Shown piece after piece: positions 1,542 to 47,960 of a DNA stretch of 64,000 nt. This DNA comes from Eledone cirrhosa (Eukaryota). The stretch's first letter is position 1. Every line of letters begins with the position of its first letter. The stretch spans positions 5,146,001 through 5,210,000 of the forward strand of contig OZ024764.1 of assembly GCA_964016885.1 (NCBI GenBank). The letters run 5' to 3'. A model generated the notes under the pieces. It searched no databases, had not been told where the DNA came from, and saw only the letters and a program-made list of their open reading frames with translations. The position numbers and the translations under genes were made by a program.

Positions 1542-1571
1542 GAACACCACTAATTTCTCCAAAACAGTTAC
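1542..1571 (+). CDS. Putative micro-exon E1 (type A1), 30 nt, phase 2-2: NTTNFSKTV
   Basis: TTTAAC-tatatttttctcattacAG | GAACACCACTAATTTCTCCAAAACAGTTAC | GTAAGT. Length is 3n. The phase-0 frame has TAA; phase 2 is open. Confidence 0.75.
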
Positions 1572-1763
1572 GTAAGTGTTACCTTAACATACTGTCTAAC
1601 CATTGTTTAATCTGCTCCTCCCTCTACCTCTCCCTTTATACACACACACACATATATACCCCTATATATATATGTATACACACACACACACAAATATATA
1701 CACATATATACATATATATATACACACATATATATATAATCACATATATATATACATATATAC

Positions 1764-1857
1764 AAGCGAGACACGGCCTGCTGACCAATCTCGCCTTAAG
1801 TGGGACAAAACCGTCCAACCCATGCTAGCATGGAAGATGGACTTTAAATGATGATGA
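1764..1857 (+). mobile_element. Short 3'-end fragment of an RTE-type LINE or an RTE-tailed SINE, repeated after each type-A exon
   Basis: ...ccgtccaacccatgctagcatggaagatggactttaaatgatgatgat resembles the 3' end of the RTE copy at ~8215-8268, with a (TGA)n tail. Confidence 0.55.
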
Positions 1858-1933
1858 TATATACACACTGACACATATATATATACATATATATATATAC
1901 ACATATATATACGCATATATTTATATATATATA

Positions 1934-2044
1934 TGAGTTCAAGTCCGCCGAGGTTAACTTTGCCTTTCATCTTTACGAGGTCGATAAAATAAAGTACCAG
2001 TGGTGTACTGGGGTAATCGCTGGCCTTGTGCCAAAAGTAGAAAC
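1934..2044 (+). mobile_element. 5'-truncated tRNA-derived SINE, same family as 22213-22401; copies near 4653, 20974, 23959, 26709, 42201, 62833
   Basis: B-box-like GAGTTCAAGTCC followed by the core GCCTTTCATC...GGTCGATAAAATAAAGTACCAG. Confidence 0.75.
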
Positions 2045-2159
2045 TATAATTATATATATATAACCAAAGATTAATATAGTTCGTTGATTACTCAACGAAT
2101 ACAGTTGTACAATAGATTAGAAGAACTCAACAGTGAAAGTTTTCCTGGACTTTTTAATA

Positions 2160-2413
2160 TTAACAAATGAAAAATATTCTCATAATCAAAATATATACTT
2201 TATTATATACATTTCAAAGGTATATGACATACCTCTACGGTCTTGATTCTTCAATTCCAGTATTGCAGTCACTGCCAATACTGGAATTGAAGAATCAAGA
2301 CCGTAGCGCTATGTCATAATCATATATTTTGTCTGATGAGGACGTACTGAAAAAACAACAATATATATAATATAGTATATATTTTGATTATGCGAATATT
2401 TTTCATTTGTTAA
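2160..2413. repeat. Nested inverted repeat (foldback): outer arms of ~50 bp and an inner near-perfect hairpin at 2235-2306; copies at 21200-21453, 24185-24438, 42427-42680, 63059-63312; only the left arm is present at ~4.9 and ~27.0 kb
   Basis: CTACGGTCTTGATTCTTCAATTCCAGTATTG pairs with CAATACTGGAATTGAAGAATCAAGACCGTAG. TTAACAAATGAAAAATATT pairs with AATATTTTTCATTTGTTAA. Confidence 0.85.
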
Positions 2414-2424
2414 CATTTTGAATA

Positions 2425-2470
<46 letters not shown>

Positions 2471-2536
2471 AGGTAAAATGAATAATGAAAGAGTTGCAAG
2501 CCTTTAAAACATATCTTTATAAAGCTCTTACATATG

Positions 2537-2587
<51 letters not shown>

Positions 2588-2590
<3 letters not shown>

Positions 2591-2822
2591 TCATTATCAT
2601 TTTATGTCCGCTTCTCCCTGCTTGCAAGGGTTGGGCTCTCACCACCACTGGCCATGTTTTTCGTGGTCTTCCTTTTACTGGGATTTTTTAGCACCTCTTT
2701 ACCCAGCAGTCATCCTCGATGCGCATCACTTGTCCATACCATCTCAGTCTTCTCTCCTGCACACCACAACTCATCCCCAGTTTCTCTCTCAACTCATCTA
2801 TGGTCTTGTCGTTCACGCACAT
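2588..2822 (-). mobile_element. Degenerate RTE LINE 3' fragment; also at 1-90 and near 21670, 24637, 42857, 63489
   Basis: The reverse strand resembles the RTE C-terminal region and ends in an (ATG)n-like tail next to (TA)n. Confidence 0.5.
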
Positions 2823-4277
2823 TGACACACACACACACACACATATATATATATTAATTCTATTGACTGATTAATAGCTCTTGTTAATTTTAAAACCATT
2901 CTGTTGAGAGCTTAATTCGTTCTGTGATATTTTGCAATTTTGCAATAACACACATACTGAATTCATCCGCCAAAACTAAGGGCTGCCCCCCCCCCCCCCC
3001 TGTGAAGCCCCACGTGGGTTTTGATAACGGTCAGTCCTTGGCTTGGCACTGAACTAAAAGCCTGTTGAGAAAGTGACTTCCTTGTTCGATCATCATACCA
3101 AAAGCTTAACATTATTTGTCTAAGTAGACAGTACTTGATTTAGGAGTTGCAGAAACCCAATACTGGATATTACCAACCTTCCAGGGGTCCGGGTATAATT
3201 TTCCATCATATTTTATTTGTTTGACCCGAATTACTTGGTCGTGTCTATGGCTGTGTGGATAATTGTTTAACCATCGTCTCAGTGTGTTTGGCCTTTTAAC
3301 TTATGTTGTTGCTCTAGTTCACTAGCTTCTATGGAGCGCTTGCCACACATCTCGGAAGTTGTTTTTCGTTAATTTCCAATAGCAGAAATGCAATTCTCGC
3401 TAATTTATATATATATATATATATATATATACACGTATAAGGGATAACAAAATATCGTTATAGGTAATCCAGGTAGAAGTTGTGAATACTCTGTATTGTG
3501 GTTAGTCTTAGTCTACGGCGTTGATTGACTCAACAAGAGGTTTCCATAGGTGGCAAGTATTTGAGTTCTCTTGAATTTCTATGCAAGTTTATCTTGGAGT
3601 AATAATATTGAAAGCGTGAAGAATAACATGGTCAACAGTACAAAAGAAGGTTTTTATTTACAGTATTAACAATTGTTTCACTGATTAAGTTGTCTAAAAA
3701 TCGCTGAAAACTTAAAGCTGTGCCACTCAATCTACTATATATATTGGAAGTGGTCGGACGTTGTATATTTAAGTAAATAAGTAGGTGTAGTCGGATAAAC
3801 GTCGAAACGGCTTGGTAGAATGCAGCGAAAATTTACACAGTTATGCAGAATTGTAGCAGTTAATGATGATATATATGTAAAAGAAATAGGATTTCGCTTC
3901 AAGCATATCTTTATACAATATGTATAAATATTTTGTATCTCCAAAGAAATACGGTTTTAGGAAGCCTTAGCTCTGCAAACCCTGGGGGGCAAACGTCCTC
4001 TGGTGATGTCCAGCAGAAGCAAGGGGGACAACCGTCTATGCATTTCAGGCTTAACTGGCCATCGTCTGGACAGTCCCTCCCACTGCTTGCGACTGCTGGC
4101 CAGTTAAGCGTGAAATGCATAGACGGTTGTCCCCCTTGCTTCTGCTGGACATCACCAGAGGCCTTGAAACCCTAAGTCCCTTTTGCTCTGTGTATGAACA
4201 GAAATAAATAATGTAATATATATATATGTATGTGTGTGTATCTATTTATATATTTAACTATTTTTTTCTCATTACAG

Positions 4278-4313
4278 CACCAATCACACACTTTCCAAGT
4301 ACGAGAATATTAT
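4278..4313 (+). CDS. Putative micro-exon E2 (type A2), 36 nt: TNHTLSKYENI
   Basis: tttttttctcattacAG | CACCAATCACACACTTTCCAAGTACGAGAATATTAT | GTAAGT. Same flanks as E1 but a different core. Confidence 0.75.
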
Positions 4314-5104
4314 GTAAGTGTTACCTTAACAAACTGTCTAACCATTGTTTAATCTGCTCCTTCCTCTACCTCTCCCTTTAATACACACACACACATATAT
4401 ACCCCTATATATATATGTATACACACACACACACAAATATATACACATATATACATATATATATACACACATATATATACATATATACAAGCGAGACACG
4501 GCCTGCTGACTAATCTCGCCTTAAGTGGGACAAAACCGTCCAACCCATGCTAGCATGGAAGATGGACTTTAAATGATGATGATATATATACACTGACACA
4601 TATATATACATATATACAAATATATATACGCATATATCTATATATATATATATGAGTTCAAGTCCGCCGAGGTTAACTTTGCCTTTCATCTTTACGAGGT
4701 CGATAAAATAAAGTACCAGTGGTGCACTGGGGTAATCGCTGGCCTTGTGCCAAAAGTAGAAACTATATTTATATATATATAACTAAAGATTAATATGGTT
4801 CGTTGATTACTCAACGAATACAGTTTTACAATAGATTAGAAGCACTCAACAGTGAAATTTTCCTGGAGTTTTTAATATTATTCAAAATATTAACAAATGA
4901 AAAATATTCTCATAATCAAAATATATACTTTATTATATATATTTCAAAGGTATATGACATACCTCTACGGTCTTGATTATTCAATTCCACTATTGGCAGT
5001 GACTATATATTTATAGGCAAAATGAATAATGAAAGAGTTGCAAGCCGTTAAAACATATCTTTATAAAGCTCTTACATATGTTATATATATATATATCATC
5101 ATCA

Positions 5105-5620
5105 TCAGCAGCGAGACCTGGGCACTGTGTGTAGAAGATCTGTAAAGATTGGAAAGAAATGAGCCTCCATGCTTCAATGGATGTGCCATAGTAATATATG
5201 CAAATGGCAAAACATAAATGTACTGTGAGAGGATTTAGGCATAAGAGGGATTAGATGCAGTGTGCAGGAGTGGGATTGTTTTGGTATAGACATGTGATGT
5301 GTATGAAGGGTGACAGCTGTATAAAAAGGTGCCAAACGCACAAAGTTGACAGAGGCCGTGGAGTGGGCAGGTCTAGGAAGACTTGGGATGAGGTAAGGAA
5401 AGCTGATTTTGCACAATTACACCTAGCTAAGGCAATGACACAGGATGGTGACCTCTGGCGCTATGCACAATTATAGAGGACTACATCCACAATCCACCAG
5501 ACATTTTCCCTACCAACACCCCACACAAGTTCCCAAACCTCACCATAAAGTGGTCCCGCTGCAGCCATGACAAATATGTCCAGTCCACACTGTACAGTGG
5601 TATTGTAGGTGTCCTGCCAA
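5105..5620 (+). mobile_element. RTE LINE 3' fragment (truncated copy of the 10.4-11.8 kb element); copy at ~27161-27676
   Basis: Decayed SETWAL..EDL..LERNE and WYRHVMCMKGDSCIKRC...GRSRKTW motifs. Confidence 0.8.
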
Positions 5621-5680
5621 AAATCAATATTGGGCCTTAAAACCTTGAGTCCCTTTTGTTCTGTGTATGAACATAAATAA

Positions 5681-5865
5681 TTGTTTCTACTTTTGGCACA
5701 AGGCCAGCAATTATCCAGTGCATTACTGGTACTTTAATTTATCGACCCCGTAAGGATGAAAGGCAAAGTTAACCTTGGCGGAATTTGAACTCAGATCATA
5801 CAGGGAGGTAACTTTGCTTCAAAGCATGGCGTCCGACCCTCTACCGATACTGCCAATCCACCGCC
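5681..5865 (-). mobile_element. Full-length tRNA-derived SINE in antisense orientation just upstream of the type-B exon acceptor, with TGAACATAAATAA target-site duplication; copy at 27737-27921, partial copies at ~13247-13327 and 47705-47837
   Basis: Reverse complement of the 22213-22401 element. TGAACATAAATAA occurs on both sides. Type-A cassettes show the empty site (tgaacagaaataaataatgtaa). Confidence 0.85.
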
Positions 5866-5953
5866 TGAACATAAATAAATAATGTAATATATATATATAT
5901 GTATGTGTGTGTGTATCTATTTATATATTTAACTATATTTTTTGTAATCACAG

Positions 5954-5995
5954 GTCTGATTCACTGCCGAGGTCCACTATAGGAAACAGTGACGA
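5954..5995 (+). CDS. Putative micro-exon E3 (type B1), 42 nt: SDSLPRSTIGNSD
   Basis: ttttttgtaatcacAG | GTCTGATTCACTGCCGAGGTCCACTATAGGAAACAGTGACGA | GTAAGT. Phase 0 has TGA and phase 1 has TAG, so only phase 2 is open. Confidence 0.75.
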
Positions 5996-6187
5996 GTAAG
6001 TTTTAGTTTTACACACTATCTAACCATTATTCTATCTGTTCCTTCCCGTCTCTCTCTCTCTTTATATATACTAAGGTGTATTATTGGTTGTGTAAAACGG
6101 TCCAATAAATTTTTGTTAGCAATATTAAGTTCTCCACGCTTTTGTATATCTCCAATTCCATTCAAGGGAACAGCTAGATGATGTAAC

Positions 6188-6274
6188 AAAATCCGAAGGC
6201 AAGGTAAAATTTCCAATCATTTTAATCATGTCGTGATTAAAATGATTGGAAATCTTACCTTCCCTTCGGATTTT
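6188..6274. repeat. Hairpin-forming inverted repeat (~42-52 bp arms) ~200 nt downstream of each type-B exon; copies at 12629-12734, 13658-13764 and near 28.25, 34.9, 48.2 and 55.45 kb
   Basis: AAAATCCGAAGGCAAGGTAAAATTTCCAATCATTTTAATCA pairs with TGATTAAAATGATTGGAAATCTTACCTTCCCTTCGGATTTT. Confidence 0.85.
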
Positions 6275-6329
6275 CATTTTGATATATATATATATATATA
6301 TATAAATATGACTCTGTCTCTTATAAACC

Positions 6330-6527
6330 ACGTTGGCTATTATGACACTCTCTCCAACATAGAGAGCTATGTTGGCTAATATGACTCTCTCTGTATGTTG
6401 ACTATAATGACTCTCTCTCTATGTTGGCTATTATGACTCTCTCTCTCTCTATGTTGGCTATTATGACTCTCTCTCTCTCTCTATGTTGGCTATAATGACT
6501 CTCTCTCTCTCTATTATGTCTCTCTCT
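6330..6527 (+). repeat. Compound minisatellite [TATGTTGGCTATTATGA(CT)n] with a variable ~26-40 bp unit; copies near 12790-12968, 13810-14062, 28390-28555, 35046-35232, 48358-48866 (expanded) and 55591-55776
   Basis: Tandem units are directly visible and produce the spurious MLAIMTLSLS ORFs. Confidence 0.9.
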
Positions 6528-6883
6528 GTTCAAGCTTTATGAAGTTAGATGAACATCTTCAAAGTCCTCCCATATTCGCCTTGTCTAATATGCGTTCTTG
6601 TACCTGATTATTTCCCCCAAATCTCCTGGGATGTTATAAACCATGATGGCTACCTATCTCACAATTTCTCTCCTGCCCACCCCCTCACACCACCATAGTC
6701 TATTCGACCAATCAAACCTCAGAAACATGTCCCCACCCATTACCAACCCCAACAAACTCTGCCATTACTACTACTTCTACTTTTCTTCTAGCCCTTACCA
6801 GCCCCAACAAACCCTGACATTATTACTACTATTGTCCTTCTAGCCATGGGCTGAGGATAAATGGGGCTACCCCAAATTAATAA

Positions 6884-8268
6884 ATGAATATGAATCCGCG
6901 AGTTACCAAGCACCCATGCAAAGCTTTAATTCAGAGACAGGAAGCATACACACCCCACTGCAAAAATTCACCCTTTCCCACGAATGGTGGCAAATGCCCA
7001 AAACTCCGAGTTGGAACCATCAATGTAAGCACAATGAAAGGAAGAGCAGGAGAAATTGTAGAGATGCTAGAGCGAAAGAAAATTGATGTATGCTGTGTGC
7101 AAGAGACTAGATGGAGAGCAGGGTCCGCTGGAGTCCTTGCAGGCAGAAGTCAGTGCTACCAATTTGTCTGGGTAGCAAATGACAACAGGATGGGAGGTGT
7201 AGCTATCCTATTAGCTGACAAATGGGTAGATAAGGTAATCTCAGTAAACAGGGTGAATGCAAGAATAATGAAACTTGGACTAGTCCTGAATAAAACAATT
7301 GCCACAATAATATCAGCTTACGCACCCCAATTGGGGTTGCCAGCTGACTATAGCGGGGAATTTAGTTTAGAGGTCGGTGTCCACCAGGGCTCTGTTCTTA
7401 GCCCACTCCTGTTCGTTGAAGTATTGCAAGCAATAACGGAGGTGATTATGACCGGTGCCCATGGGAACTCCTATATGCGGATCATCTCACACTTATAGCC
7501 GAATCTATGGTGGAACTATACTTGCTCAGTATGTAGAAAAGGAGTAGGCTGGCTGCAAAAGGCTTTCCCCTCAAAATGAAAAGCAGACTGTATGATGTGG
7601 GTATACGAATAGCAATGTTACATAGTAGTGAAACCTGGGCGCCGTCTGTGGAAGACTTGCATAGATTAGAAAGAAATGAAGCCTGCATGCTCCGATGGAT
7701 GTGTAATAGTAATATACGCGAACGGCAAAGCATAAATGAATTGAGAGAGTGACTGAGCATAAGAGGAATGAAATGCTGTGTGCAGGAGAGGAGGTTGCAT
7801 TGGACATGTGATGCGTATGAAGGATGACAGCTGTATAAAAAGGTGTAGAGCAGTAGAAGTCGATGGAAGCCGTAGAGTGGGGAGACCCAAGAAGAGCTGG
7901 GATGAGGTGATAAAAGCCGACCTTACCCAGTTGCACCTCTCAAAGGCGATGACACAGGACCGTCACCTCTGGCATCAAGCAGTAATACAGAAGACCTGAC
8001 TCCCCAGGGCTACAAGCGGAAGCTGAAGCGTATGCTCCCACCCTCTTCGACTGTACAGTGGACGTATAGGCGCCACAGACAAAAAGCACCCAGGACTCAC
8101 TGTAAATGAGGTTGGTGTTAGGAAGGGCATCCAGCTGTAGGAATCAAGCCAGAATCAGTTCCTGTATGAGCAAGACAAGGTCAGCTGAACAGACACTGCC
8201 CACAACAGGACAACCCGTCTAACCCATGCTAGCGTGGAAGAATGGACGTAAAACAGTGATGAAGATGA
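6884..8268 (+). mobile_element. Internally deleted RTE-clade LINE relic (N-terminal AP endonuclease joined to RT and C-terminal fragments); copies at 14419-15630, 28912-30297, 35590-36800, ~49223-50608, 56134-57345
   Basis: APE motifs LRVGTINVSTMKGR, DVCCVQETRW, GGVAIL and ISAYAPQ jump directly to RT motifs GVHQGSVLSPLLF and ELLYADHL. Stops and frameshifts follow, and the element ends in a (TGA)n-like tail. Confidence 0.88.
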
Positions 8269-8270
8269 TA

Positions 8271-10394
8271 TATCATATATGCCAGTGTACAAGTTGACAT
8301 TTGGAGCCTAAAAATATCTCTCCAAAACCAGGGGTCGACTTGTCTGCTGAATATAGTATGTTACCTTTACCACTGAGGGGTATACAGTGAAACTGCCTGC
8401 CTAACACTTGTTGTACACCACTTACCATAACTCTAGCAACCCACCACATTTATTTCTACTGAATCTCATATTTGTTAAGTTTAACGTAGAGATTATAGTA
8501 ATATCAATGTCTTGCTGTAGCTTATAGGGTAGGTTACTGTTGGGTAGGTTACTGTAGCATAGGTTACCATAGGGTAGGATAGTGTCTGGTAGGTTACCAT
8601 AGGGTAGGTTACGATAGGGCAGGATACTGTAGGGTAAGTTACTGGAGGGTAGGTTACCATAGGGTAGGTTACCGTAGTGTAGGTTACCATTGGGTAGGTT
8701 ATTATAGGGTAGGTTACCACAGGGTAGGTGACCATAGAATAGGTTACTGTAGGGTATTTTACCATAGGGTATGTTACCATAGGGTAGGTTACCTTATGGT
8801 AGGTTACCTTAAGGTAGGTTACCATAGGGTAAGTTACCATAGGGTAGGTTACCTTAGGGTAGGTGACCATAGTGTAGGCTACCATAGGTTAGGTTCTGTA
8901 TGGTAGGTTAGGTTACTATAGGGTAGGTTACCATAGGGTAGGTTACGATAGGGTTAGTTACCATAGGGTAGGTTACCATAGCGTAGGTTACTATTGGGTA
9001 GGTTACCATAGGGTAGGTTACTGTAGGTTAGGTTACGTAGGGTAGGTTACCATAGGGTAGGTTGCCATAGAGTAGGTTATTATAGGGTAGGTTACCATAA
9101 GGTAGATTACCTCAGGGTATGTTACCATATGGTAGGTTACCATAGGGTAGGTTACTGTAGGGTAGTTTACCATAGTGTAGGATACCTTAAATTAGGTTAC
9201 CACAGGAAAAGTTACCATATGGTAGGTTACTGTAGGTTAGGTTACCATAGGGTAGGTTATCATAGGTTAGGTTACCAAAGGGTAGGTTACTATAGGTTGT
9301 TACCATTGGGTAGGTTACTGTAGGGTAACATAGGTTACGATAGTGTAGGTTAATATAACATAGGTCACCATAGTGTAGGTTACCTTAGATTAGGTTACCA
9401 CAGGATAGGTTACCATATGGTAGGTTACTGTAGGTTAGGTCACCATAGGGTAGGTTACTATAGGGTAGGCTACTATAGGTTGTTACCATAGGGTAGGTTA
9501 CCATAGAGTAGGTTACAATATGGTTGGTTACCATAGTGTAGGTTACTATAACATTGGTTACCACAGTGTAGGTTACCTTAATTTAGGTTACCATAGGTTA
9601 GGTTACCGTATCGTAGGTTACTGTAGGTTAGGTTACAATAGGGTAGGTTACTATAGGGTAGGCTACCAATGATAGGTTATGATGGGTTAGGTTCCATAGG
9701 GTAGGTTACCACAGTATATGTTACCATATGGTAGGTTAGGTTACCATAGGGTAGGTCACCATAGTGTAGGTTACTTTAGATTAGGTTACCATAGGGTAGG
9801 TTACCACAGGATAAGTTACCATATGGTAGGTTACTATAACATAGGTTACCAAAGTGTAGGTTTCTATAGGTTGTTACCATAGGGTAGGTTACTGTAGGGT
9901 AGGTTACTGTAAGGTAGGTTACCATAGGGTAGGATACTGTAGGGTAGGTTACCAGAGGGTAGGTTATTATAGTATAGGTTACCGTAGGGTAGGTTTCCAT
10001 GAAGTAGGTGACCATAGGGTAGGTTACTATAAGTTAGGTTACCATAGGGTAGGTTTCCATGAAGTAGGTTACCACAGGGTAGGTTAACATAAATTAGGTT
10101 ACCTTAGGGTAGGTTACCATAAGTTAGGTTACCATACGGTAGGTTACCATAGGTTTGTTAAGGTTAGGCTAGGCTGGTCTACTCGGTGAGTTAAAACTCA
10201 CTTGTGACTGTAGTGTTTTAGAAGAAGTGTCTTAATCTTTCGTGCACCACTAAATTTTTTAACTATTTCCCCTGAAACTGCCTTATTTTGGGGAGGTTAT
10301 CTTATCAATCGAATAGCGTCCTAAATCTAAATTACACCTCAGAATTTTAGGGGCCACGCTATGTACCGGATAGACTTGTACACCGGCATATATA
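8271..10394. mobile_element. Non-autonomous TIR DNA transposon (Tc1/mariner superfamily, Tc2/pogo-like ends) carrying the 15-bp satellite; copies at 15633-17393, ~30299-32478, ~36803-38684, ~50611-52994, ~57347-59228, with partial copies elsewhere
   Basis: Left end TATCATATATGCCAGTGTACAAGT. Right end ACTTGTACACCGGCATATATGGTA (17370-17393), whose reverse complement is TACCATATATGCCGGTGTACAAGT. Both ends are in TA context. The family assignment is from recall. Confidence 0.6.
8525..10170 (+). repeat. 15-bp satellite, consensus TAGGGTAGGTTACCA (variant TAGGGTAGGTTACTG)
   Basis: About 110 diverged units; source of the VGYHR/VTYPM pseudo-ORFs. Confidence 0.95.
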
Positions 10395-10439
10395 TATATG
10401 CAAAGAGAGCGAGAGAAACAGCGGGAGTGAGAGAGATAC

Positions 10440-11830
10440 ATTAAAACAATAACAGAGGTCTGACTGGAGAATTTACTTTAGAATTTTAAGAGAAAAGAGG
10501 AAGGTTTCAGACTTCTGGAATTCCTTCACGAAAATGTCCTATTTATCTGTAACACAAACTTCAAAAAATGAGACAACCACTTAATAACATATAGATCATG
10601 TGAGCCCACCAGCTAGATAGATTTCCTTGTTACCATAAGACAGAGTGACTGTTATAAACACAAAGTCCCTCCCTAGTGAAGAATGCACCTCCCAACATAC
10701 CTTAGGAGACAAACTGGAAGAAAAGATTATAGATCAAAATCAAAAGGTCTTAAAGTCAATTTGGTAAAGACTAAAGTTCTAGTAAGTAGAAAGGAAAACA
10801 GGGCCCAGATCTCTTCAGGTAAACTGTCCTGCTCAGTGTGCAGAAAAGGAGTAGGTAGAAATTCCATCCTATGTCCCATATAGAAATGATGGGTACACAA
10901 AAGATGTCGTGGGATCTCAGGGAGGCTAACAAAGAACGTAGCTTCTACATGTGGCCAATGAACAGGAGATGGAAATATCAAGAGCTCTCGGGTTACAATC
11001 TCCTTCAAATACCCGAAAGTCTCTGTAGAGGTGGTAGATAGTTTCTGTTACCTAGGTGACTAAATCAGCAGTGGAGTAGGGTGGTCCCAAAACTCAGTAA
11101 CAAGAGTGAGATTAGATTGGAGAAAGTGCAGGGATCTACTACTACTGCTAACAACAAAAAGTTTTTCCCTCAAAATGAAGGGCAGACTGTATGATGCAGG
11201 TATACAAACAACAATGTTGCACAGCAGCGAGACCTGGGCACTGTGTGTAGAAGATCTGTAAAGATTGGAAAGAAATGAAGCCTCCATGCTTCAATGGATG
11301 TGCCATAGTAATATATGCAAATGGCAAAACATAAATGTACTGCGAGAGAAATTAGGCATAAGAGGGGTTAGATGCAGTGTGCAGGAGAGGGATTGTTTTG
11401 GTATAGACATGTGATGTGTATGAAGGGTGACAGCTGTATAAAAAGGTGCCGAACAAACAAAGTTGACAGAAACCGTGGAGTGGGCAGGTCTAGGAAGACA
11501 TGGGATGAGGTAAGGAAAGCTGACTTTGCACAATTACACCTCGCTAAGGCAATGACACAGGAGGGTGACCTCTGGCGCTATGCACAATTATAGAGGACCT
11601 GCCCTCATAAATCCACGAGCTGAGGCATATATCTAGTATGTAACACCTTCCCCACCATCATCCCTCCCAAACACCTTCACCCCTATAACTACATCCACAA
11701 TCCACCAGACATTTTCCCTACCAACACCCCACACAAGTTCCCAAACCTCACCATAAAGTGGTCCTGCTGCAGCCATGACAAATGTGTCCAGTCCACACTG
11801 TACAGTGGTCTTGTAGGTGTCCTGCCAAAA
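10440..11830 (+). mobile_element. Decayed RTE LINE (endonuclease remnant, post-RT region and 3' end); copies at ~17780-18641 (truncated), 32520-33910, 39070-39932 (truncated), 46340-47640, 53060-54450, 59610-60476 (truncated)
   Basis: SKGLKVNLVKTKVLV, CSVCRKGVGRNSILC, VVDSFCYLGD* and SETWAL motifs with in-frame stops. Confidence 0.85.
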
Positions 11831-11888
11831 ATCAATATTGGGCCTTAAAACCTTGAGTCCCTTTTGTTCTGTGTATGAACATAAATAA

Positions 11889-12278
11889 TTGTTTCTACTT
11901 TTGGCACAAGGCCAGCAATTATCCAGTGCATTACTGGTACTTTATTTTATCGACCCCGTAAGGATGAAAGGCAAAGTTAACCTTGGCGGGATTTGAACTC
12001 AGATCATACAGGGAGGTAACTATGCTTCAAAGCATGGCGTCCGACTCTCTACCGATACTGCCAATCCACCGCCTGAACATAAATAAATAATTGTTTCTAT
12101 TTTAGGCACAAGGCCAGCAATTACCCAGTACATGACTGGTACTTTATTTTATCGACCCCGTAAGGATGAAAGGCAAAGTTAACCTCGGCGGGATTTGAAC
12201 TCAGATCATAAAGGGACGTAACTCTATGCTTCAAAGCATGGTGTCCGACTCTCTACCGATACTGCCAATCCACCACCC
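11889..12278 (-). mobile_element. Tandem dimer of the antisense SINE upstream of E4
   Basis: Two head-to-tail copies separated by TGAACATAAATAAATAA. Confidence 0.85.
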
Positions 12279-12366
12279 TGAACATAAATAAATAATGTAA
12301 TATATATATATATGTATGTGTGTGTGTATCTATTTATATATTTAACTATATTTTTTGTAATCACAG

Positions 12367-12408
12367 GACTGTTCCACTGCAGGGTTCCGCTAGAGGAAAC
12401 AGTGACGA
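12367..12408 (+). CDS. Putative micro-exon E4 (type B2), 42 nt: TVPLQGSARGNSD
   Basis: tcacAG | GACTGTTCCACTGCAGGGTTCCGCTAGAGGAAACAGTGACGA | GTAAGT. Confidence 0.75.
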
Positions 12409-12729
12409 GTAAGTTTTAGTTTTACACACTATCTAACCATTATTCTATCTGTTCCTTCCCGTCTCTCTCTCTCTCTTTATATATATATATTTATATATAC
12501 TAAGGTGTATTATTGGTTGTGTAAAACGGTCCAATAAATTTTTGTTAGCAATATTAAGTCCTCCACGCTTTTGTATATCTCCAATTCCATTCAAGGGAAC
12601 AGCTAGATGATGTAAAACGGAGTATTTCTATCAAAATGAAAATCCGAAGGCAAGGTAAAATTTCCAATCATTTTAATCACATCGTGATTAAAATGATTGG
12701 AAATCTTACCTTCCTTTGGATTTTCATTT

Positions 12730-12767
<38 letters not shown>

Positions 12768-13406: not shown

Positions 13407-13448
13407 GACTGATACAGAGGAGAGTACCGCTCTAGAAAAGAATGACAA
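13407..13448 (+). CDS. Putative micro-exon E5 (type B3), 42 nt: TDTEESTALEKND
   Basis: tcacAG | GACTGATACAGAGGAGAGTACCGCTCTAGAAAAGAATGACAA | GTAAGT. Confidence 0.75.
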
Positions 13449-13512
13449 GTAAGTTTTAGTTTTACATACTATCTAACCATTATTCTATCTGTTCCTTCCC
13501 GTCTCTCTCTCT

Positions 13513-13550
<38 letters not shown>

Positions 13551-34992: not shown

Positions 34993-35026
<34 letters not shown>

Positions 35027-37037: not shown

Positions 37038-38460
37038 CAATGTCTTGCTGTAGCTTATAGGGTAGGTTACCATACGGTAGGGTACTGTAGGGTAGGTTAC
37101 CATAGGGCAGGTTACTGTAGGGTAGGATACTGTCTGGTAGGTTACCATAGGGTAGGTTACTGTAGGGTAGGTTACTATAGGGTAGGTTACTGTAGGGTAG
37201 GTTACTGTAGTGTAGGTTACTGTAGAGTAGGTTACTATAGGGTAGGTTACTGTAGTGTAGATTACTCTAGGCTAGGTTACCATAGGGTAGGTTACTGTAG
37301 TGTAGATTACCATAGGGTAGGTTACCACAGAGTAGGTGACCATAGGGTATGTTATTATAGGGTAGGTAACTGTAGGTTAGGTTACTGTAGGGTAGGTTAC
37401 CTTATGGTAAGTTACTATAGGGTAGGTTACCATAGTGTAGGTTACCTTATGGTAAGTTACTATAGGGTAGGTTACCATAGGGTAGGTTACCTTATGGTAG
37501 GTTACCTTATGGTAAGTTACTATAGGGTAGGTTACCATAGTGTAGGTTACCTTATGGTAAGTTACTATAGGGTAGGTTACCATAGGGTAGGTTACCTTAG
37601 TGTAGGTTACCATAAGGTAGGTTACTGTAGGGTAGGTTACCATAGGGTAGGTTACTGTAGGGTAGGTTACCATAGGGTAGGTTACTGTAGGTAGGTTACC
37701 ATAGGGTAGTTTACCGTAGGTTAGGTTACTGTAGGGTAGGTTAACATAGGGTATGTTAGCATAGGGTTGGTTACCATAGGTTAAGTTCATATAGGTTGTT
37801 ACCATATGGTAGGTTACTGTAGGGTAGGTTGCTATAGGGTAGGTTATCGTAGAGTAGATTACTATAAGGTAGGTTACCATAAGGTAGGTTACCGTAGGGT
37901 AGGTTACTATAGGGTAGGGTATCATAGGATAGGTTACCATAAGGCAGGTTACCATAGAGTAGGTTACCTTAGGGTAGTTTACTATAAGATAGGTTACCAT
38001 AGTGTAGCTTACCATAGGGTAGGTTGTTACCATAGGCAAGGTTACTATAGGGTGGGTTACCATAGGGTAGTTTATGATATGGTTGGTTACCATAGTGTAG
38101 GTTACTATAACATAGGTTACCATAGTGTAGGATACCTTAGATTAGGTTACCACAGGATAGGTTACTGTAGGTTAGGTTACCATATGGTAGGTTACCATAG
38201 GTTAGGTTAGCAATGGGTAGGTTACTATAGGTTGTTACCATAAGGTAGGTTACTGTATGGTGGGTTACCATAGGGTAGGGTACCATAAAGTAGGTTATTA
38301 TAGTGTAGGTTACCTTAGGATAGGTAACCATAGGGTAGGTTACTATGGGGTAAGTTACCATAGGGTAGGTTCCCATAGGGTAGGTTAATATAAGCTAGGT
38401 TACCTCAGGGTAGGTTACCATACCATAAAGTAGGTTACCATAGGTTTGTTAAGGTTAGGC
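37038..38460 (+). repeat. 15-bp satellite array; near-identical copy at 57602-59005
   Basis: Tandem units; the 248-aa pseudo-ORFs are identical in both copies. Confidence 0.95.
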
Positions 38461-41400
38461 TAGGCTGGTCTACTCGGTGAGTTAAAACTCACTTGTGACT
38501 GTAGTGTTTTAGAAGTGTCTCAATCTTTCATGCACCACTAAATTTTTTAACTATTTCCCCTGAAACTGCCTTATTTTTGGGGGTCATCTTATCAATCGAA
38601 TAGCGTCCTAAATCTAAATTATACTTCAGAATTTTAGGGGCCGACTTATGTACCGGATAGACTTGTACACCGGCATATATGGTATATATATATATATGCA
38701 TGGAGGCACATGGCTTAGTGGTTAGAGCATTGGTCATGCAATCGAAAGGTTGTGAGTTCAATTCTCAGACCGGGTGATGTGTTGGTTCCTTGAGCAAGAC
38801 ACTTTATTTCACATTGCTCCAGTTTACTCAGCTGTAGAAATGAGATGATAGGGACTGGGGTCCCTATCATTCCACTGCAAAGTGGTCGTGGAGGTGCCAC
38901 GGCAAAAAAAGCACCCAGCACTCACTGTAAATGAGGTTGGTGACAGGAAGGGAATACAGCTGTAGAAATCAAGCCAGAATCAGTTCCCGTCCCGCCCTTG
39001 CAAGCAGGGAAAAGTGGACGTAAAATGAAATGATGAAAGAGAGATAGAGAGAAAGAGAGGGAGTGAGAGAGATACATTAAAACAATAACAGAAGGTCTGA
39101 CTGGAGAATTTACTTTAGAATTCCTTCACGGAAATGTCTTATTTATCTGTAACACAAACTTCAAAAAACAAGACAACCACTTAATAATCGATAGATCAAG
39201 TGAGCCCTCCAGCTAGATAGATTTCCTTGTTACCAGAAGATAGAGTGACTGTTATAAACACAAAGTCCTTCCCTAGTGAAGAATGCACCTCCCAACATAC
39301 CTTAGAATACAACCTGGAAGAAAAGAGTATAGATCAAAATCAAAAGGTCTTAAAGTCAATTTGGTAAAGACTAAAGTTCTAGTAAGTAGAAAGGAAAACT
39401 GGGCCCAGATCTCTTCAGGTAAACTGTCCTGCTCAGTGGGCAGAAAAGGAGTAGGTAGAAATTCCATCCTATGTCCCATATAGAAATGATGGGTACACAA
39501 AAGATGTTGTGGGATCTCAGGAAGGCTAACAAAGAACGTAGCTTCTACATGTGGCCAGTGAACAGGGGCAGGAAATATCAAGAGCTCTCGAGTTACAATC
39601 TCCTTCAAATGCCCAAATGTCTCTGCAGAGGTGGTAGATAGTTTCTGTTACTTAGGTGACTAAATCAGCAGTGGAGGAGGGTGGTCCAAAAACTCAGTAA
39701 CAAGAGTGAGATTAGATTGGAGAAAGTGCAGGGATCTACTACTACTGCTAACTACAAAACATTTTTCCATCAAAATGAAGGGCAGACTGTATGATGCAGG
39801 TATACAAACAACAATGTTGCACAGCAGCGAGACCTGGGCACTGTGTGTAGAAGATCTGTAAAGATTGGAAAGAAATGAAGCCTCCATGCTTCAATGGATG
39901 TGCCATAGTAATATATGCAAATGGCAAAACATAGGTTACCATTGGGTAGGTTACTGTAGGGTAGGGTACCATAGGGTGGGTTACCATAGCGTAGGTTACT
40001 GAATGGTAGGTTACATTTTGTTAGGTTACTGTAGGGTAGGTTACCATAGGGTAGGTTACCATAGGGTGGGTTACCATAGGGTAGGTTACTGTAGGGTAGG
40101 TTACCATAGGGTAGGTTACTGTAGGGTAGGTTACCATAGAGTAGGATACTGTAGGGTAGGTCACTGTAGGGTAGGTTACCATAGGGTAGGTTATTATAGG
40201 GTAGGTTACCATAGGTTAGGTTACTATAGGGTTGGTTGCCATAGGGTATGTTACCATAGGGTAGGTTACTATAAGGTAGGTTACCATACCATAGGCTAGG
40301 TTACCATATGTTTGTTAAGGTTAGGCTAGGCTGGTTTACTCGGTGAGTTAAAACTCACTTGCGACTGTAGTGTTTTAGAAGAAGTGTCTTAATCTTTAGT
40401 GCGCCACTAAATTTTTTAACTATTTCCCCTGAAACTGCCTTATTTTTTGGGTGTCGTCTTATGAATCGAATAGTGTCGTATAGGACTATCTGGCATGTTT
40501 TCTATGGCTGGATGCCCTTCCTAACACCAACCACGTTTACAGTGTGGGGACTGGGAGGTTTTTACCATGTTAACTACACGGCCAATTTACAGCGTGGACT
40601 GTGTGTATTATTGTCATGACACCTACACAACCTCATTTATTTAGGACTGGATGTTGTGTGACCAACATAATTTTACAGAGATGGGGGTGGGAGTAGTGGG
40701 GTGGGGGCGTATATTTGGTTAAGAGGTGCCTACTGACTGTAGGTTTCGCTTTGTACTTAGGCAAGGGTGGTCTTCTGTATTACTGCGTAGCGCCAAAGAT
40801 CTCGGTTCAGTGACATTGTCTTGGAGAGGTGTAAGTGTGTGAGATCGGAATTTATCAATTCGTCCCAGGGTTTTCTGGGTCTGCCTACTCCGTGGCTACC
40901 ATTTATTTTGATCGCCCTGCACTTTTTTATACAGCTGTCGTCTTTCTTGCGCATCACGTGACCATACCAACGTAGTCTTCTCTCGAGTAAACAACATCTG
41001 ATCCCTCTTATTCCTAATTTCTCACTTAGTTCATTTATGCTTTGCCGTTCACGTATATTACTATTACACATCCAGCGGAGCATGCAAACTTCATTCCTCT
41101 CCAGTCTGCGTATATCCTCTGCACACAATGCCCAAGTCTCACTGCCATGTAACATTGTTGTTCGTATGCAGGCATCATACGGCCTGCCTTTCATTTTTAG
41201 AGAGAACCCTTTAGCGGCCAATCGTACAATGAAAAGAGCGTCTGTGATACTTTTACCTGACACAAACCCAAACTGCATTTCATCTAGATCAATTCTCTCT
41301 CTGATTAGTTGCGCTATTACTTTTTCTGTGACCCTCATGAACTGGTCAATTAATTTAATGCCTCTATAGTTTCCCCTATCTAGGGCATCTCCTTTACCCT

Positions 41401-41829
41401 TGTAGCAGTTAATGATGATGATATATATATAAAAGAAATAGGATTTCGCTTCAAGCATATCTTTATACAATATGTATAAATATTTTGTATCTCCAAAGAA
41501 ATACGGTTTTAGGAAGCCTTAGCTCTGCAAACCCTGGGGGGCAAACGTCCTCTGGTGATGTCCAGCAGAAGCAAGGGGGACAACCGTCTATGCATTTCAG
41601 GCTTAACTGACCATCGTCTGGACAGTCCCTCCCACTGCTTGCGACTGCTGGCCAGTTAAGCGTGAAATGCATAGACGGTTGTCCCCCTTGCTTCTGCTGG
41701 ACATCACCAGAGGCCTTGAAACCCTAAGTCCCTTTTGCTCTGTGTATGAACAGAAATAAATAATGTAATATATATATATGTATGTGTGTGTATCTATTTA
41801 TATATTTAACTATTTTTTTCTCATTACAG

Positions 41830-41862
41830 CAACCTTCTTATGTTAGATTACAAGAAATTTAT
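41830..41862 (+). CDS. Putative micro-exon E11 (type A3), 33 nt: NLLMLDYKKF
   Basis: tcattacAG | CAACCTTCTTATGTTAGATTACAAGAAATTTAT | GTAAGT. Phase 1 has TAG; phase 2 is open. Confidence 0.75.
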
Positions 41863-42691
41863 GTAAGTGTTACCTTAACAAACTGTCTAACCATTGTTTA
41901 ATCTGCTCCTCCCTCTACCTCTCCCTTTATACACACACACATATATACCCCTATATATATATGTATACACACACACACACAAATATATACACATATATAC
42001 ATATATATATACACACACATATATATACATATATACAAGCGAGACACGGCCTGCTGACCAATCTCGTCTTAAGTGGGACAAAACCGTCCAACCCATGCTA
42101 GCATGGAAGATGGACTTTAAATGATGATGATATATATACACTGACACATATATATACATATATACAAATATATATACGCATATATCTATATATATATATA
42201 TGAGTTCAAGTCCACCGAGGTTAACTTTGCCTTTCATCTTTACGAGGTCGATAAAATAAAGTACCAGTGGTGCACTGGGGTAATCGCTGGCCTTGTGCCA
42301 TAAGTAGAAACTATAATTATATATATATAACCAAAGATTAATATAGTTCGTTGATTACTCAACGAATACAGTTGTACAATAGATTAGAAGAACTCAACAG
42401 TGAAAGTTTTCCTGGACTTTTTAATATTAACAAATGAAAAATATTCTCATAATCAAAATATATACTTTATTATATACATTTCAAAGGTATATGACATACC
42501 TCTACGGTCTTGATTCTTCAATTCCAGTATTGCAGTCACTGCCAATACTGGAATTGAAGAATCAAGACCGTAGCGCTATGTCATAATCATATATTTTGTC
42601 TGATGAGGACGTACTGAAAAAACAACAATATATATAATAAAGTATATATTTTGATTATGCGAATATTTTTCATTTGTTAACATTTTGAATA

Positions 42692-42737
<46 letters not shown>

Positions 42738-42803
42738 AGGTAAAATGAATAATGAAAGAGTTGCAAGCCTTTAAAACATATCTTTATAAAGCTCTTACAT
42801 ATG

Positions 42804-42859
<56 letters not shown>

Positions 42860-43961
42860 TCATTATCATTTTATGTCCGCTTTTCCCTGCTTGCAAGGGT
42901 AGGGCTCTCACCACCACTGGCCATGTTTTTCGTGGTCTTCCTTTTACTGGGATTTTTTAGCACCTCTTTACCCAGCGGTCATCCTCGATGCGCATCACTT
43001 GTCCATACCATCTCAGTCTTCTCTCCTGCACACCACAACTCATCCCCAGTTTCTCTCTCAACTCATCTATGGTCTTGTCGTTCACGCATATTGACACACA
43101 CACACACACACACATATATATATTAATTCTATTGACTGATTAATAGCTCTTGTTAATTTTAAAACCATTCTGTTGAGAGCTTAATTCGTTTTGTGATATT
43201 TTGCAATAACACACATACTGAATTCATCCGCCAAAACTAAGGGTTGCCCCCCCCCCCCCCCTGTGAAGCCCCACGTGGGTTTTGATAACGGTCAGTCCTT
43301 GGCTTGGCACTGAACTAAAAGCCTGTTGCAAAAGTGACTTCCTTGTTCGATCATCATACAAAAAGCTTAACATTATTTGTCTAAGTAGACAGTACTTGAT
43401 TTAGGAGTTGCAGAAACCCAATACTGGATATTACCAACCTTCCAGGGGTCCGGGTATAATTTTCCATCATATTTTATTTGTTTTACTCGAATTACTTGGT
43501 CGTGTCTATGGCTGTGTGGATAATTGTTTAACCATCGTCTCAGTGCGTTTGGCCTTTTAACTTACGTTGTTGCTCTAGTTCACTAGCTTCTATGGAGCGT
43601 TTCCCACACATCTCGGAAGTTGTTTTTCGTTAATTTCCAATAGCAGAAATGCAATTCTCGCTAATTTATATATATATATATATATACACGTATAAGGGAT
43701 AACAAAATATCGTTATAGGTAATCCAGTTAGAGGTTGTGAATACTCTGTATTGTGGTTAGTCTTAGTCTACGGCGTTGTTTGACTCAACAAGAGGTTTCC
43801 GTAGGTGGCAAGTATTTGAGTTCTCTTGAATTCCTATGTAAGTTTTGTTGTACACCAGTTACCATAACTCTAGCAACCCATCACATTTATTTCTACTGAA
43901 TCTCATATTTGTTAAGTTTAACGTAGAGATTATAGTAATATCAATGTCTTGCTGTAGCTTA

Positions 43962-46080
43962 TAGGGTAGGTTACCATAGGGTAGGTTACTGTAGGGTAGG
44001 TTACCATAGGGTAGATAGTGTCTGGTAGGTTACCATAGGGTAGGTTACGATAGGGTAGGATAGTGTTTGGTAGGTTACCATAGGGTAGGTTACTGTAGGG
44101 TAGGTTACGATAGGGTAGGATACTGTAGGGTAAGTTACTGGAGCGTAGGTTACGATAGGGTAGGTTACCATTGGGTAGGTTACCATTGGGTAGGTTATTA
44201 TAGGGTAGGTTACCACAGGGTAGGTTACCATAGAATAGGTTACTGTAGGGTATTTTACCATAGGGTATGTTACCATAGGGTAGGTTACCTTAAGGTAGGT
44301 TACCATAGGTAGGTTACCTTAGGGTAGGTGACCATAGTGTAGGTTACCATAGATTAGGTTCTGTATGGTAGGTTAGGTTACTATAGGGTAGGTTACCATA
44401 GGGTAGGTTACGATAGGGTAGGTTACCATAGCGTAGGTTACTATTGGGTAGGTTACCATAGGGTAGGTTACTGTAGGTTAGGTTACGTAGGGTTGGTTAC
44501 CATAGGGTAGGTTGCCATAGAGTAGGTTATTATAGGGTAGGTTACCATAAGGTAGATTACCTCAGGGTAGGTTACTGTAGGGTAGGTTACCATGGGGTAG
44601 GTTACCATAGGGTAGGTTACCATAGTGTAGGTTACCTTAAATTAGGTTACCACAGGATAAGTTACCATATGGTAGGTTACTGTAGGTTAGGTTACCATAG
44701 GTCAGGTTACCATAGGGTAGGTTACTATAGGTTGCTACCATTGGGTAGGTTACTGTAGGGTAACATAGGTTACCATAGTGTAGGTTAATATAACATAGGT
44801 CACCATAGTGTAGGTTACTTTAGATTAGGTTACCATAGGGTAGGTTACCACAGGATAGGTTACCATAGGGTAGGTTACTATAGGTTGTTACCATAGGGTA
44901 GGTTACGATATGGTTGGTTACCATAGTGTAGGTTACTATAACATTGGTTACCATAGTGTAGGTTACCTTAATTTAGGTTACCATAGGTTAGGTTACCGTA
45001 TCGTAGGTTACTGTAGGTTAGGTTACCATAGGGTAGGTTACTATAGGGTAGGCTACCAATGATAGGTTACCATAGGGTAGGTTACCACAGGATATGTTAC
45101 CATAGGGTAGGTTACTGTAGGGTAGGTTACTATAACATAGGTCACCATAGTGTAGGTTACTTTAGATTAGGTTACCATAGGGTAGGTTACCACAGGATAA
45201 GTTACCATATGGTAGGTTACTGTAGGTTGTTACCATAGGCTAGGTTACTATAACATAGGTTACCAAAGTGTAGGTTTCTATAGGTTGTTACCATAGGGTA
45301 GGTTACTGTAGGGTAGGTTACCATAGGTTAGGTTACCATAGTGTAGGTTACTGTAGGGTAGGTTACTGTAGGGTAGGATACTGTAGGGTAGAATACTGTA
45401 GGGTAGGTTACCATAGGGTAGGATACTGTAGGGTAGGTTACTGTAGGGTAGGTTACTGTAGGGTAGGATACTGTAGGGTAGGTTACTGTAGGGTAGGATA
45501 CTGTAGGGTAGGTTACCGTAGGGTAGGTTACTGTAGGGTAGGTTACCATAGGGTAGGATACTGTAGGGTAGGTTACTGTAGGGTAGGATACTGTAGGGTA
45601 GGATACTGTAGGGTAGGTTACCATAAGGTAGGATACTGTAGGGTAGGATACTGTAGGGTAGGATACTGTAGGGTAGGTTACTGTAGGGTAGGTTACCGTA
45701 GGGTAGGTTACTGTAGGGTAGGTTACCATAGGGTAGGATACTGTAGCGTAGGTTACTGTAGTGTAGGTTACCATAGGGTAGGTTATTATAGTATAGGTTA
45801 CCGTAGGGTAGGTTTCCATGAAGTAGGTGACCATAGGGTAGGTTACTATAAGTAAGGTTACCATAGGGTAGGTTTCCATGAAGTAGGTTACCACAGGGTA
45901 GGTTAACATAAATTAGGTTACCTTAGGGTAGGTTACCATAAGTTAGGTTACCATAGGGTAGGTTTCCACAAGGTATTAACATAAAGTAGGTTACCATAAG
46001 TTAGGTTACCATAGGGTAGGTTACCATAAGTTAGGTTACCAGAGGGTAGGTTACCATAGGTTTGTTAAGGTTAGGCTAGG
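43962..46080 (+). repeat. 15-bp satellite array with a homogeneous recent expansion at ~45350-45770
   Basis: Run of GGGTAGG(T/A)TACTGTA units. Confidence 0.95.
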
Positions 46081-47918
46081 CTGGTCTACTCGGTGAGTTA
46101 AAACTCACTTGTGACTGTAGTGTTTTAGAATAAGTGTCTTAATCTTTCGTGCACCACTAAATTTTTTAACTATTTCCCCTGAAACTGCCTTATTTTGGGG
46201 AGGTTATCTTATCAATCGAATAGCGTCCTAAATCTAAATTACACCTCAGAATTTTAGGGGCCACGCTATGTACCGGATAGACTTGTACACCGGCATATAT
46301 ATATATGCAAAGAGAGCGAGAGAAACAGCGGGAGTGAGAGAGATACATTAAAACAATAACAGAGGTCTGACTGGAGAATTTACTTTAGAATTTTAAGAGA
46401 AAAGAGGAAGGTTTCAGACTTCTGGAATTCCTTCACGAAAATGTCCTATTTATCTGTAACACAAACTTCAAAAAATGAGACAACCACTTAATAACCTATA
46501 GATCATGTGAGCCCACCAGCTAGATAGATTTCCTTGTTACCATAAGACAGAGTGACTGTTATAAAAACAAAGTCCCTCCCTAGTGAAGAATGCACCTCCC
46601 AACATACCTTAGGAGACAACCTGGAAGAAAAGAGTATAGATCAAAATCAAAAGGTCTTAAAGTCAATTTGGTAAAGACTAAAGTTCTAGTAAGTAGAAAG
46701 GAAAACTGGGCCCAGATCTCTTCAGGTAAACTGTCCTGCTCAGTGTGCAGAAAAGGAGTAGGTAGAAATTCCATCCTATGTCCCATATAGAAATGATGGG
46801 TACACAAAAGATGTTGTGGGATCTCAGGAAGGCTAACAAAGAATGTAGCTTCTACATGTGGCCAATGAACAGGAGCAGGAAATATCAAGAGCTCTCGGGT
46901 TACAATCTCCTTCAAATACCCAGAAGTCTCTGTAGAGGTGGTAGATAGTTTCTGTTACCTAGGTGACTAAATCAGCAGTGGAGTAGGGTGGTCCCAAAAC
47001 TCAGTAACAAGAGTGAGATTAGATTGGAGAAAGTGCAGGGATCTACTACTACTGCTAACTACAAAAGGTTTTTCCCTCAAAATGAAGGGCAGACTGTATG
47101 ATGCAGGTATACAAACAACAATGTTGCACAGCAGCGAGACCTGGGCACTGTGTGTAGAAGATCTGTAAAGATTGGAAAGAAATGAAGCCTCCATGCTTCA
47201 ATGGATGTGCCATAGTAATATAGGCAAATGGCAAAACATAAATGTACTGTGAGAGAAATTAGGCATAAGAGGGATTAGATGCAGTGTGCAGGAGAGGGAT
47301 TGTTTTGGTATAGAAATGTGATGTGTATGAAGGGTGACAGCTGTATAAAAAGGTGCCAAACGCACAAAGTTGACAGAGGCCGTGGAGTGGGCAGGTCTAG
47401 GAAGACTTGGGATGAGGTAAGGAAAGCTGACTTTGCACAATTACACCTAGCTAAGGCAATGACACAGGATGGTGACCTCTGGCGCTATGCACAATTATAG
47501 TGGACTACATCCACAATCCACCAGACATTTTCCCTACCAACACCCCACACAAGTTCCCAAACCTCACCATAAAGTGGTCCCGCTGCAGCCATGACAAACG
47601 TGTCCAGTCCACACTGTACAGTGGTCTTGTAGGTGTCCTGCCAAAAATTAATATTGGGCCTTAAAACCTTGAGTGCCTTTTGTTCTGTGTATGAACATAA
47701 ATAATTGTTTCTACTTTTGGCACAAGGCCAGCAATTATCCAGTGCATTACTGGTACTTTATTTTATCGACCCCGTAAGGATGAAAGGCAAAGTTAACCTC
47801 GGCGGGATTTGAACTCAGATCGGAAAGGGAAGTAACTAAATAAATAATGTAATATATATATATATGTATTTGTGTGTGTATCTATTTATATATTTAACTA
47901 TATTTTTTGTAATCACAG

Positions 47919-47960
47919 GACTGATACAGAGGAGAGTATCGCTCCAGAAAAGAATGACGA
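47919..47960 (+). CDS. Putative micro-exon E12 (type B3 variant), 42 nt: TDTEESIAPEKND
   Basis: aatcacAG | GACTGATACAGAGGAGAGTATCGCTCCAGAAAAGAATGACGA | GTAAGT. Three nonsynonymous changes relative to E5. Confidence 0.73.

Follow-up and report, generated by a model that had tools for sequence, protein, structure and literature searches.

How can the coding segments of a gene differ widely from copy to copy when the introns around them are nearly the same? The question is raised by a window of 64,000 nucleotides (C25:5,146,001-5,210,000; contig OZ024764.1) in the 3.0-Gb genome of Eledone cirrhosa, which we analysed together with neighbouring stretches of C25. The window is the middle of an array of about 530 kb (C25:4,871,418-5,399,532) that contains 100 called micro-exons, separated by introns of 1-10 kb (median 6.1 kb), and seven extra cassette copies with a damaged donor or acceptor. 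From the sequence we consider it probable that these ~100 symmetric micro-exons encode the cytoplasmic N-terminal tail of a divergent neprilysin-like (M13) membrane protein without the catalytic glutamate, with exon cores diversified by selection and introns homogenised. We call the host gene A; three paralogs on C25, termed B, C and D, carry far fewer micro-exons (Table 1).

Exon cores and their flanks

Duplicated units of up to 12.9 kb at 99% identity make up the window. Using a common upstream motif, which has 97 exact occurrences in the genome, every one on C25, we found 14 AG...GT cassettes in the window. These comprise the 12 exons described in an earlier note on this DNA, all lying where it had placed them, and two more (E13 and E14). 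Micro-exons of the array fall into two classes, B type (n = 54; 42 nt, acidic) and A type (n = 46; variable length, with a basic or hydrophobic end). The 100 called exons are 27, 30, 33, 36, 42 or 78 nt long (95 do not exceed 42 nt), all are multiples of three in phase 2/2, and 96 have a GTAAGT donor. They represent 54 distinct sequences that translate into 49 peptides. In the phase-2 frame none of the 54 contains a stop, compared with 40 and 21 in the other two frames; the tally of changes along minimum spanning trees would have predicted 7.7-11.6 stops. Since no exon ends in TA or TG (0/100), no exon-exon junction creates a stop, and inclusion of all 100 exons would yield 1,321 residues. The micro-exons look coding.

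Repeat units of 12-13 kb at 99% identity could have inflated the exact copy number, but it is scarcely credible that most of the array was produced from a few copies by faulty assembly: misassembly cannot create 54 distinct frame-true exons, there is no N letter across 864 kb of C25 sequence, and runs X1-X3 contain the cassette with other cores. Runs X1-X4, compared with window positions 1100-7900, were swamped by genome-wide repeats; only two exon-core variants were readable and no splice joints were among the matches listed. No RNA run was among those listed as matching an intronic query, which speaks neither for nor against expression. One contig from run X2 crosses E2 with a 36-nt core that has eight substitutions and five residue changes, keeps the frame open and is none of the assembly's 54 distinct exons.

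The earlier note had reported that exon cores diverge far faster than their introns, and its hand counts were exact: six changes within the last 13 nt between E1 and E6, seven of seven changes nonsynonymous between E3 and E10, three of three between E5 and E12, one glycine-to-serine change between E4 and E10 and a single silent change between E2 and E8. Comparing exon columns with unmasked flank columns, we found an excess in exons for E1/E6 (6/30 versus 2/706, p = 7e-8), E3/E10 (7/42 versus 2/133, p = 7e-4) and E2/E11 (13/33 versus 0/325, p = 3e-15); the pairs E5/E12 (3/42 versus 0/55, p = 0.08) and E4/E10 (1/42 versus 3/221, p = 0.5) were not significant alone. Exon cores outpace flanks throughout the array, by 11-fold in the B type (70 changes over 42 sites, or 1.67 per site, versus 16 over 106, or 0.15) and by 19-fold in the A type (mean pairwise divergence 0.298 versus 0.016 in 1035 pairs). 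The peak of divergence coincides with the AG/GT borders: diversity leaps at the AG, climbing inside the first one or two exon bases, and falls at the GT, and the last 20 intron bases have zero diversity at 16 of 20 positions in the A type and at all 20 in the B type.

Selection, homogenisation and mutation

The proposal that the changes are almost only amino-acid-changing describes the B exons (56.5 nonsynonymous versus 7.5 synonymous) but not close A-type pairs, which show 34 nonsynonymous and 14 synonymous changes and no nonsynonymous excess. Single counts of 3/3 or 7/7 prove little, because chance alone makes about 75-80% of changes nonsynonymous. Omega, the ratio of nonsynonymous to synonymous rates, was estimated in tests that cover 9-25 codons and ignore recombination, which can inflate it. 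For B exons counting gave 2.0-2.7 (p 0.09-0.01), and a codon model of 19 sequences gave 3.9 (likelihood-ratio test, p = 0.005), or 9.6 (p = 0.001) once the three most divergent sequences were dropped. One-change steps among B-type exons, the youngest, are nonsynonymous in eight of nine cases, and the ninth lies at a junction. For A exons the codon model returned 1.5 (78-nt), 0.7 (30-nt) and 1.5 (33-nt), none of which differs from 1 (p 0.4-0.5; two 30-nt and three 33-nt poorly alignable cores, and the 27- and 36-nt exons, were excluded). Diversifying selection, one of the explanations first offered, was thus detected in the B class and not in the A class. We conclude that exon diversity is likely to be kept by selection.

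Among A-type pairs with identical 266-nt flanks, the exons differ by more than 20% in 33 of 69, and flank sites failed the four-gamete test in 8/84 and 9/66 pairs, so the flanks have likely been shuffled and homogenised. Silent changes in A exons number 14, versus 1.5-3.3 expected at the flank rate (p <= 1e-5), and positive selection alone is therefore insufficient. These three results agree with the intron homogenisation put forward in the earlier note; flanks are likely to have been homogenised by recombination, with exon cores escaping.

The silent excess and the sharp rise at exon borders would also fit a mutation process targeted to exon cores, as has been proposed for conotoxins, in which synonymous and nonsynonymous changes alike become more frequent precisely from the AG to the GT. 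So would the single-copy transmembrane exon of the host gene, which repeats the exon-above-intron pattern: C and D differ there at 33/87 sites versus 1/85 in the flanks. We regard such a process as quite unlikely. Exons and flanks have a similar spectrum of changes (A/G 23/87 versus 23/83), without an editing-like bias and hence without support for a special mutator; silent divergence in the ectodomain exons (0.04-0.06) is near the flank level (0.03-0.04); omega above 1 in B exons requires selection; and the evident recombination of flanks accounts for the silent excess. With no A/G excess, an RNA-editing or retro-copy signature was also rejected. Selection, and hypermutation combined with homogenisation, had been posed as alternatives; instead, selection and homogenisation both appear to be needed in part, and hypermutation is without positive support.

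We propose that unequal crossing-over duplicates and deletes exon-plus-intron units, and that crossing-over together with gene conversion would keep the introns similar. Selection would act against any copy or conversion tract that erases an exon's identity and would favour new amino-acid variants, so that cores would diverge and flanks stay flat.

Some further features of the array were seen. Many of its introns contain arrays of a 15-bp telomere-like unit, which could seed recombination. Exons of 78 and 57 nt look like two A micro-exons joined in frame with an acceptor remnant between them, and the captured remnant now contributes variation at the amino-acid level. A-type exons have an inverted repeat of ~50 bp at a distance of 110 nt on their upstream side; its depth in the runs points to a high-copy element and not to a dedicated splicing structure. 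Repeats in the window presumably resemble octopus short interspersed nuclear elements.

Host gene, paralogs and predicted tail

Past the last micro-exon, after 13.8 kb, starts a transmembrane exon (phase 2-to-1) with a hydrophobic stretch of ~20 residues. Beyond it, four of seven scanned exons match PF05649/PF01431 (Peptidase_M13_N, Peptidase_M13) in order with E values of 4e-5 to 0.013, each falling below the whole-protein cut-off. The last exon has an M13 match above the cut-off in a genome search and matches neprilysin in PDB (E = 1e-4), and two exons have the sizes and phases (78 nt, 68 nt) of those in a canonical M13 gene on C24. Most proteins of the M13 family have a type II membrane layout and the motifs HExxH, GENIAD and VNAFY; some members are inactive (PMC2259306). 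Gene A has VNAFY and QENIAD motifs; its zinc motif is HKIFH, compared with HQIFH in D and HEIFH in B and C. Gene A is an M13 homologue but, by the HExxH test, not an active M13 peptidase. All 17 compared constant exons are open in the four paralogs, with indels in frame, and ectodomain omega is 1.1-1.8, significant in one of six pairs (C-D, p = 0.023, uncorrected).

Paralog D presents the order of parts in full: its ATG exon ends in phase 2 and is followed by a single basic micro-exon and the transmembrane exon, with no signal peptide. This type II exon order appears to fit all four paralogs, with the start exon truncated in A. Paralog C has a different ATG from D in the same phase. The ATG exons of C and D lie within sequence matching a dispersed repeat on many contigs and are possibly an exapted element. 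Genes A and B differ at 27/4,300 intron bases (0.6%) and their first two micro-exons are identical; the ~17-fold change in copy number, whether growth in A or shrinkage in B, should therefore be very recent. Gene A could start from another exon, or an AT|G could be formed at the first junction (39 exons end in AT and 77 begin with G). Some 14 kb before the first micro-exon there is a gene-specific block that includes a TATA-like box.

The last micro-exons are basic, as on the cytosolic side of a membrane, and N-glycosylation sequons occur in 0/19 B-type exons versus 4.5 by shuffling. YxxPhi motifs occur in 15 of 30 distinct A peptides (4.3 in shuffles), a count that is not independent because the exons have common descent, and motifs resembling immunoreceptor tyrosine-based inhibitory or switch motifs (ITIM/ITSM) in 4/30 (0.7 in shuffles); these may be sorting and signalling motifs, and the counts are a lead. 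As every exon is a multiple of three and no junction creates a stop, exon skipping would yield many tails on one ectodomain, and as many A exons end in YxxPhi, those tails would differ in sorting or signalling sites.

The micro-exons might instead encode a variable, mucin-like stretch on the luminal side of a protein that is secreted or displayed at the surface (in saliva, venom, skin or gametes), on the pattern of the schistosome micro-exon genes (MEGs) or SmPoMuc. Their peptides are Thr/Ser-rich, and sequons in 12/30 A-type peptides (a number reached in 59/2000 shuffles) give a weak luminal hint. Venoms frequently draw on neprilysin-like genes (PMC8314478), and neprilysin transcripts are found in octopus salivary and digestive glands (PMC12607849). 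We nevertheless hold this to be improbable, since upstream there is no signal peptide, the one transmembrane segment seen comes after the array and before the M13 domain, the last micro-exons are basic and B-type exons lack sequons.

Several observations weigh against a cytoplasmic tail under selection. Besides the A-class results, the recombination-prone omega tests, the common descent behind the YxxPhi count and the sequon hint, all four paralogs lack two canonical M13 segments, which neither tblastn nor blastn found in 8 introns, and at these points an open frame requires donors 4 nt beyond the strong ones; paralog B has lost the first strong GT, which fits use of the donors 4 nt further on. 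Genes A and B are without the half of the start exon that bears the ATG, and a start-exon scan over 31 kb for gene A gave 33 candidates with an ATG and a phase-2 donor, of which 10 distinct ones lie in low-copy DNA, with none singled out. The truncated start exon would also fit a history in which translation through the array had been lost and runaway amplification carried along older, once-selected exon diversity. Consistent with such decay, the HExxH glutamate and a conserved N-terminal cysteine are replaced in A and not in B, a splice site is damaged in 8/107 cassettes, and only 1.9-2.8 stops are expected among close pairs, so that their absence alone is not significant. We consider decay unlikely, however: the 54 distinct exons and the 17 constant exons are free of stops and frameshifts, the two indels between A and B keep the frame, the youngest B-exon steps are nonsynonymous, the TATA-like block is retained upstream and AT|G junction codons are available.

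If the tail is cytoplasmic, as we favour, its variation would most likely reflect an arms race, fought against a protein of a partner or of a pathogen. Rapid evolution of a cytosolic tail attached to an inactive enzyme suggests that the protein is a receptor or a decoy and that it is in conflict with a partner. A more tentative idea, possible but doubtful, is that the array is a combinatorial library of ~100 units. It would vary the tyrosine-motif tail inside the cell of a receptor with an inactive neprilysin fold, and would be a Dscam/MEG-like diversity generator that evolved independently in an octopus-like animal and serves immunity, self-recognition or fertilisation. Diversity would then act on the signalling side of the membrane, with a copy number of 6 to 100 among paralogs 0.6% apart.

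Searches around the gene gave further observations. Single-exon protein searches returned no match at E<=1 or E<=10 and the ESM Atlas gave a best score of 0.88 and no family, both being weak tests for queries of 43-59 aa; no relatives of this M13 subfamily were found in the protein databases searched. A profile search of 1.84 billion representatives gave one match, to a repetitive protein, judged to be chance; Pfam matches to ASLyase_C, EGF_Hmr-1 and SHP were dismissed as weak or simple hydrophobic matches; and an M13 match at C25:24,978,256 covers only the last two mapped exons and not the 59-aa exon. More canonical M13 genes exist elsewhere in the genome. Directly before the VNAFY exon, an exon-like piece of 16 or 20 nt is kept in all four paralogs, and introns of A and C hold large minisatellites.

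Table 1 Positions of the micro-exons, host-gene exons, paralogs and repeats (window positions count from the first base of the window)
Feature	Position	Strand	Details
Array segment	window 1..64000	+	constant exons beyond window, same strand
E1	window 1542..1571	+	A type, 30 nt, phase 2/2
E2	window 4278..4313	+	A type, 36 nt, YxxI (ITIM-like) end
E3	window 5954..5995	+	B type, 42 nt
E4	window 12367..12408	+	B type, 42 nt
E5	window 13407..13448	+	B type, 42 nt
E6	window 20584..20613	+	A type, 30 nt
E7	window 23567..23596	+	A type, 30 nt, sequence of E1
E8	window 26334..26369	+	A type, 36 nt
E9	window 28010..28051	+	B type, 42 nt, sequence of E3
E10	window 34653..34694	+	B type, 42 nt
E11	window 41830..41862	+	A type, 33 nt, YxxF end
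E12	window 47919..47960	+	B type, 42 nt
E13	window 55191..55232	+	B type, 42 nt, sequence of E10, outside range of earlier note
E14	window 62462..62494	+	A type, 33 nt, sequence of E11, outside range of earlier note
15-bp telomere-like unit arrays	window 8524-10153, 15886-17131, 30552-32237, 37057-38422, 43961-46060, 50865-52775, 57601-58966		
Inverted repeat	window 1261-1430		
Fusion-like exons, 78 nt	C25:4,952,553; 4,968,128; 4,985,029; 5,066,424; 5,306,123		
Fusion-like exons, 57 nt	C25:4,902,087; 5,229,117; 5,252,286		
Gene A (array host)	C25, array and constant exons	+	~100 micro-exons
Transmembrane exon, gene A	C25:5,413,283-5,413,395	+	
Exon-like piece, gene A	C25:5,453,832-5,453,847		
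Minisatellite, gene A intron	C25:5,539,000-5,617,400		78 kb of 46-bp unit
Zinc-motif exon (HKIFH)	C25:5,618,006-5,618,073	+	
Last coding exon	from C25:5,629,413	+	
Paralog B	C25:7.15-7.32 Mb	minus	6 micro-exons
Paralog D	C25:7.48-7.55 Mb		1 micro-exon
Paralog C	C25:25.04-25.35 Mb		9 micro-exons, ATG exon equivalent to that of D
ATG exon, paralog D	C25:7,491,826-7,492,132		
ATG exon, paralog C	C25:25,041,720-25,042,030		
Transmembrane exons compared	C25:5,413,283 (A); 7,498,831 (D); 25,176,278 (C)		
Minisatellite, gene C intron	C25:25,237,300-25,308,600		71 kb of ~60-bp unit
More canonical M13 genes	C24:7.50-7.83 Mb; C2; C3		three clustered on C24

Comparison with known systems

We found no description of the array in the openly accessible literature, supplements lying outside this coverage, and no M13 gene with a micro-exon array in literature and database searches. 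Exons of 30-42 nt lying 6 kb apart are easily overlooked by standard annotation. Paralogs with 1, 6, 9 and ~100 exons form a natural series in which the growth of exon arrays can be tested, as can selection plus intron homogenisation against a raised mutation rate, an old question of venom genes. In mammalian ECE-1, alternative N-terminal tails come from a few first exons. Arthropod Dscam has dozens of tandem alternative exons, which are domain-sized, extracellular and mutually exclusive; the present array likewise has dozens of tandem exons in one gene but no frame constraint that would force exclusivity. A search for a Dscam-type docking complement between the flanks of four exons and the first and last intron gave only matches of 14 nt (a repeat hairpin) and 11 nt, and short sites could be missed.

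As in conotoxin and snake-venom genes, divergence in exons is far above that in introns (compare PMC3862624), but that likeness, drawn in the earlier note, does not extend to the host: the venom genes form multigene families that encode short secreted toxins, whereas here the variation is among exons inside one neprilysin-like membrane gene. With the M13 family, including inactive Drosophila neprilysin-like proteins, gene A shares VNAFY/ENIAD motifs, lineage-specific expansion and loss of catalytic residues, and probably the type II layout (PMC2259306); it differs in the micro-exon array, a predicted N-terminal tail of up to 1,321 aa and an ectodomain omega of about 1 or above.

The closest parallels come from schistosomes. 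In SmPoMuc of Schistosoma mansoni a 27-bp exon and its flanking intron are tandemly repeated at the 5' end of the gene, up to 20 times; introns are more than 93-94% alike by conversion, exon types are held different by selection and the units contain microsatellites (PMC2576457). The array described here resembles it in its tandem exon-plus-intron units, in the microsatellites within them and in having introns more alike than exons. SmPoMuc is a mucin with few exon types; here there are ~100 exons, about five times its maximum of 20, with 49 peptides, omega above 1 in one class, units of 1-10 kb and a neprilysin-like membrane protein as host, in which the array is likely to be cytosolic. We do not claim membership of the SmPoMuc family, because the downstream exons are M13. 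MEGs have very small symmetric exons that permit frame-keeping skipping and a high nonsynonymous-to-synonymous ratio, are mostly coded by micro-exons, possess a signal peptide and reportedly occur in flatworms alone (PMC4350168). The present exons are equally small and symmetric, but no signal peptide lies upstream in C or D, and the array precedes a signal-anchor exon and a conventional M13 ectodomain and appears to have arisen by tandem copying of exon-intron units. Large variable micro-exon arrays are known mainly from parasitic flatworms, where they act outside the cell; the one described here likely varies the intracellular tail of a neprilysin-like membrane protein, a place where arms races are rarely seen.

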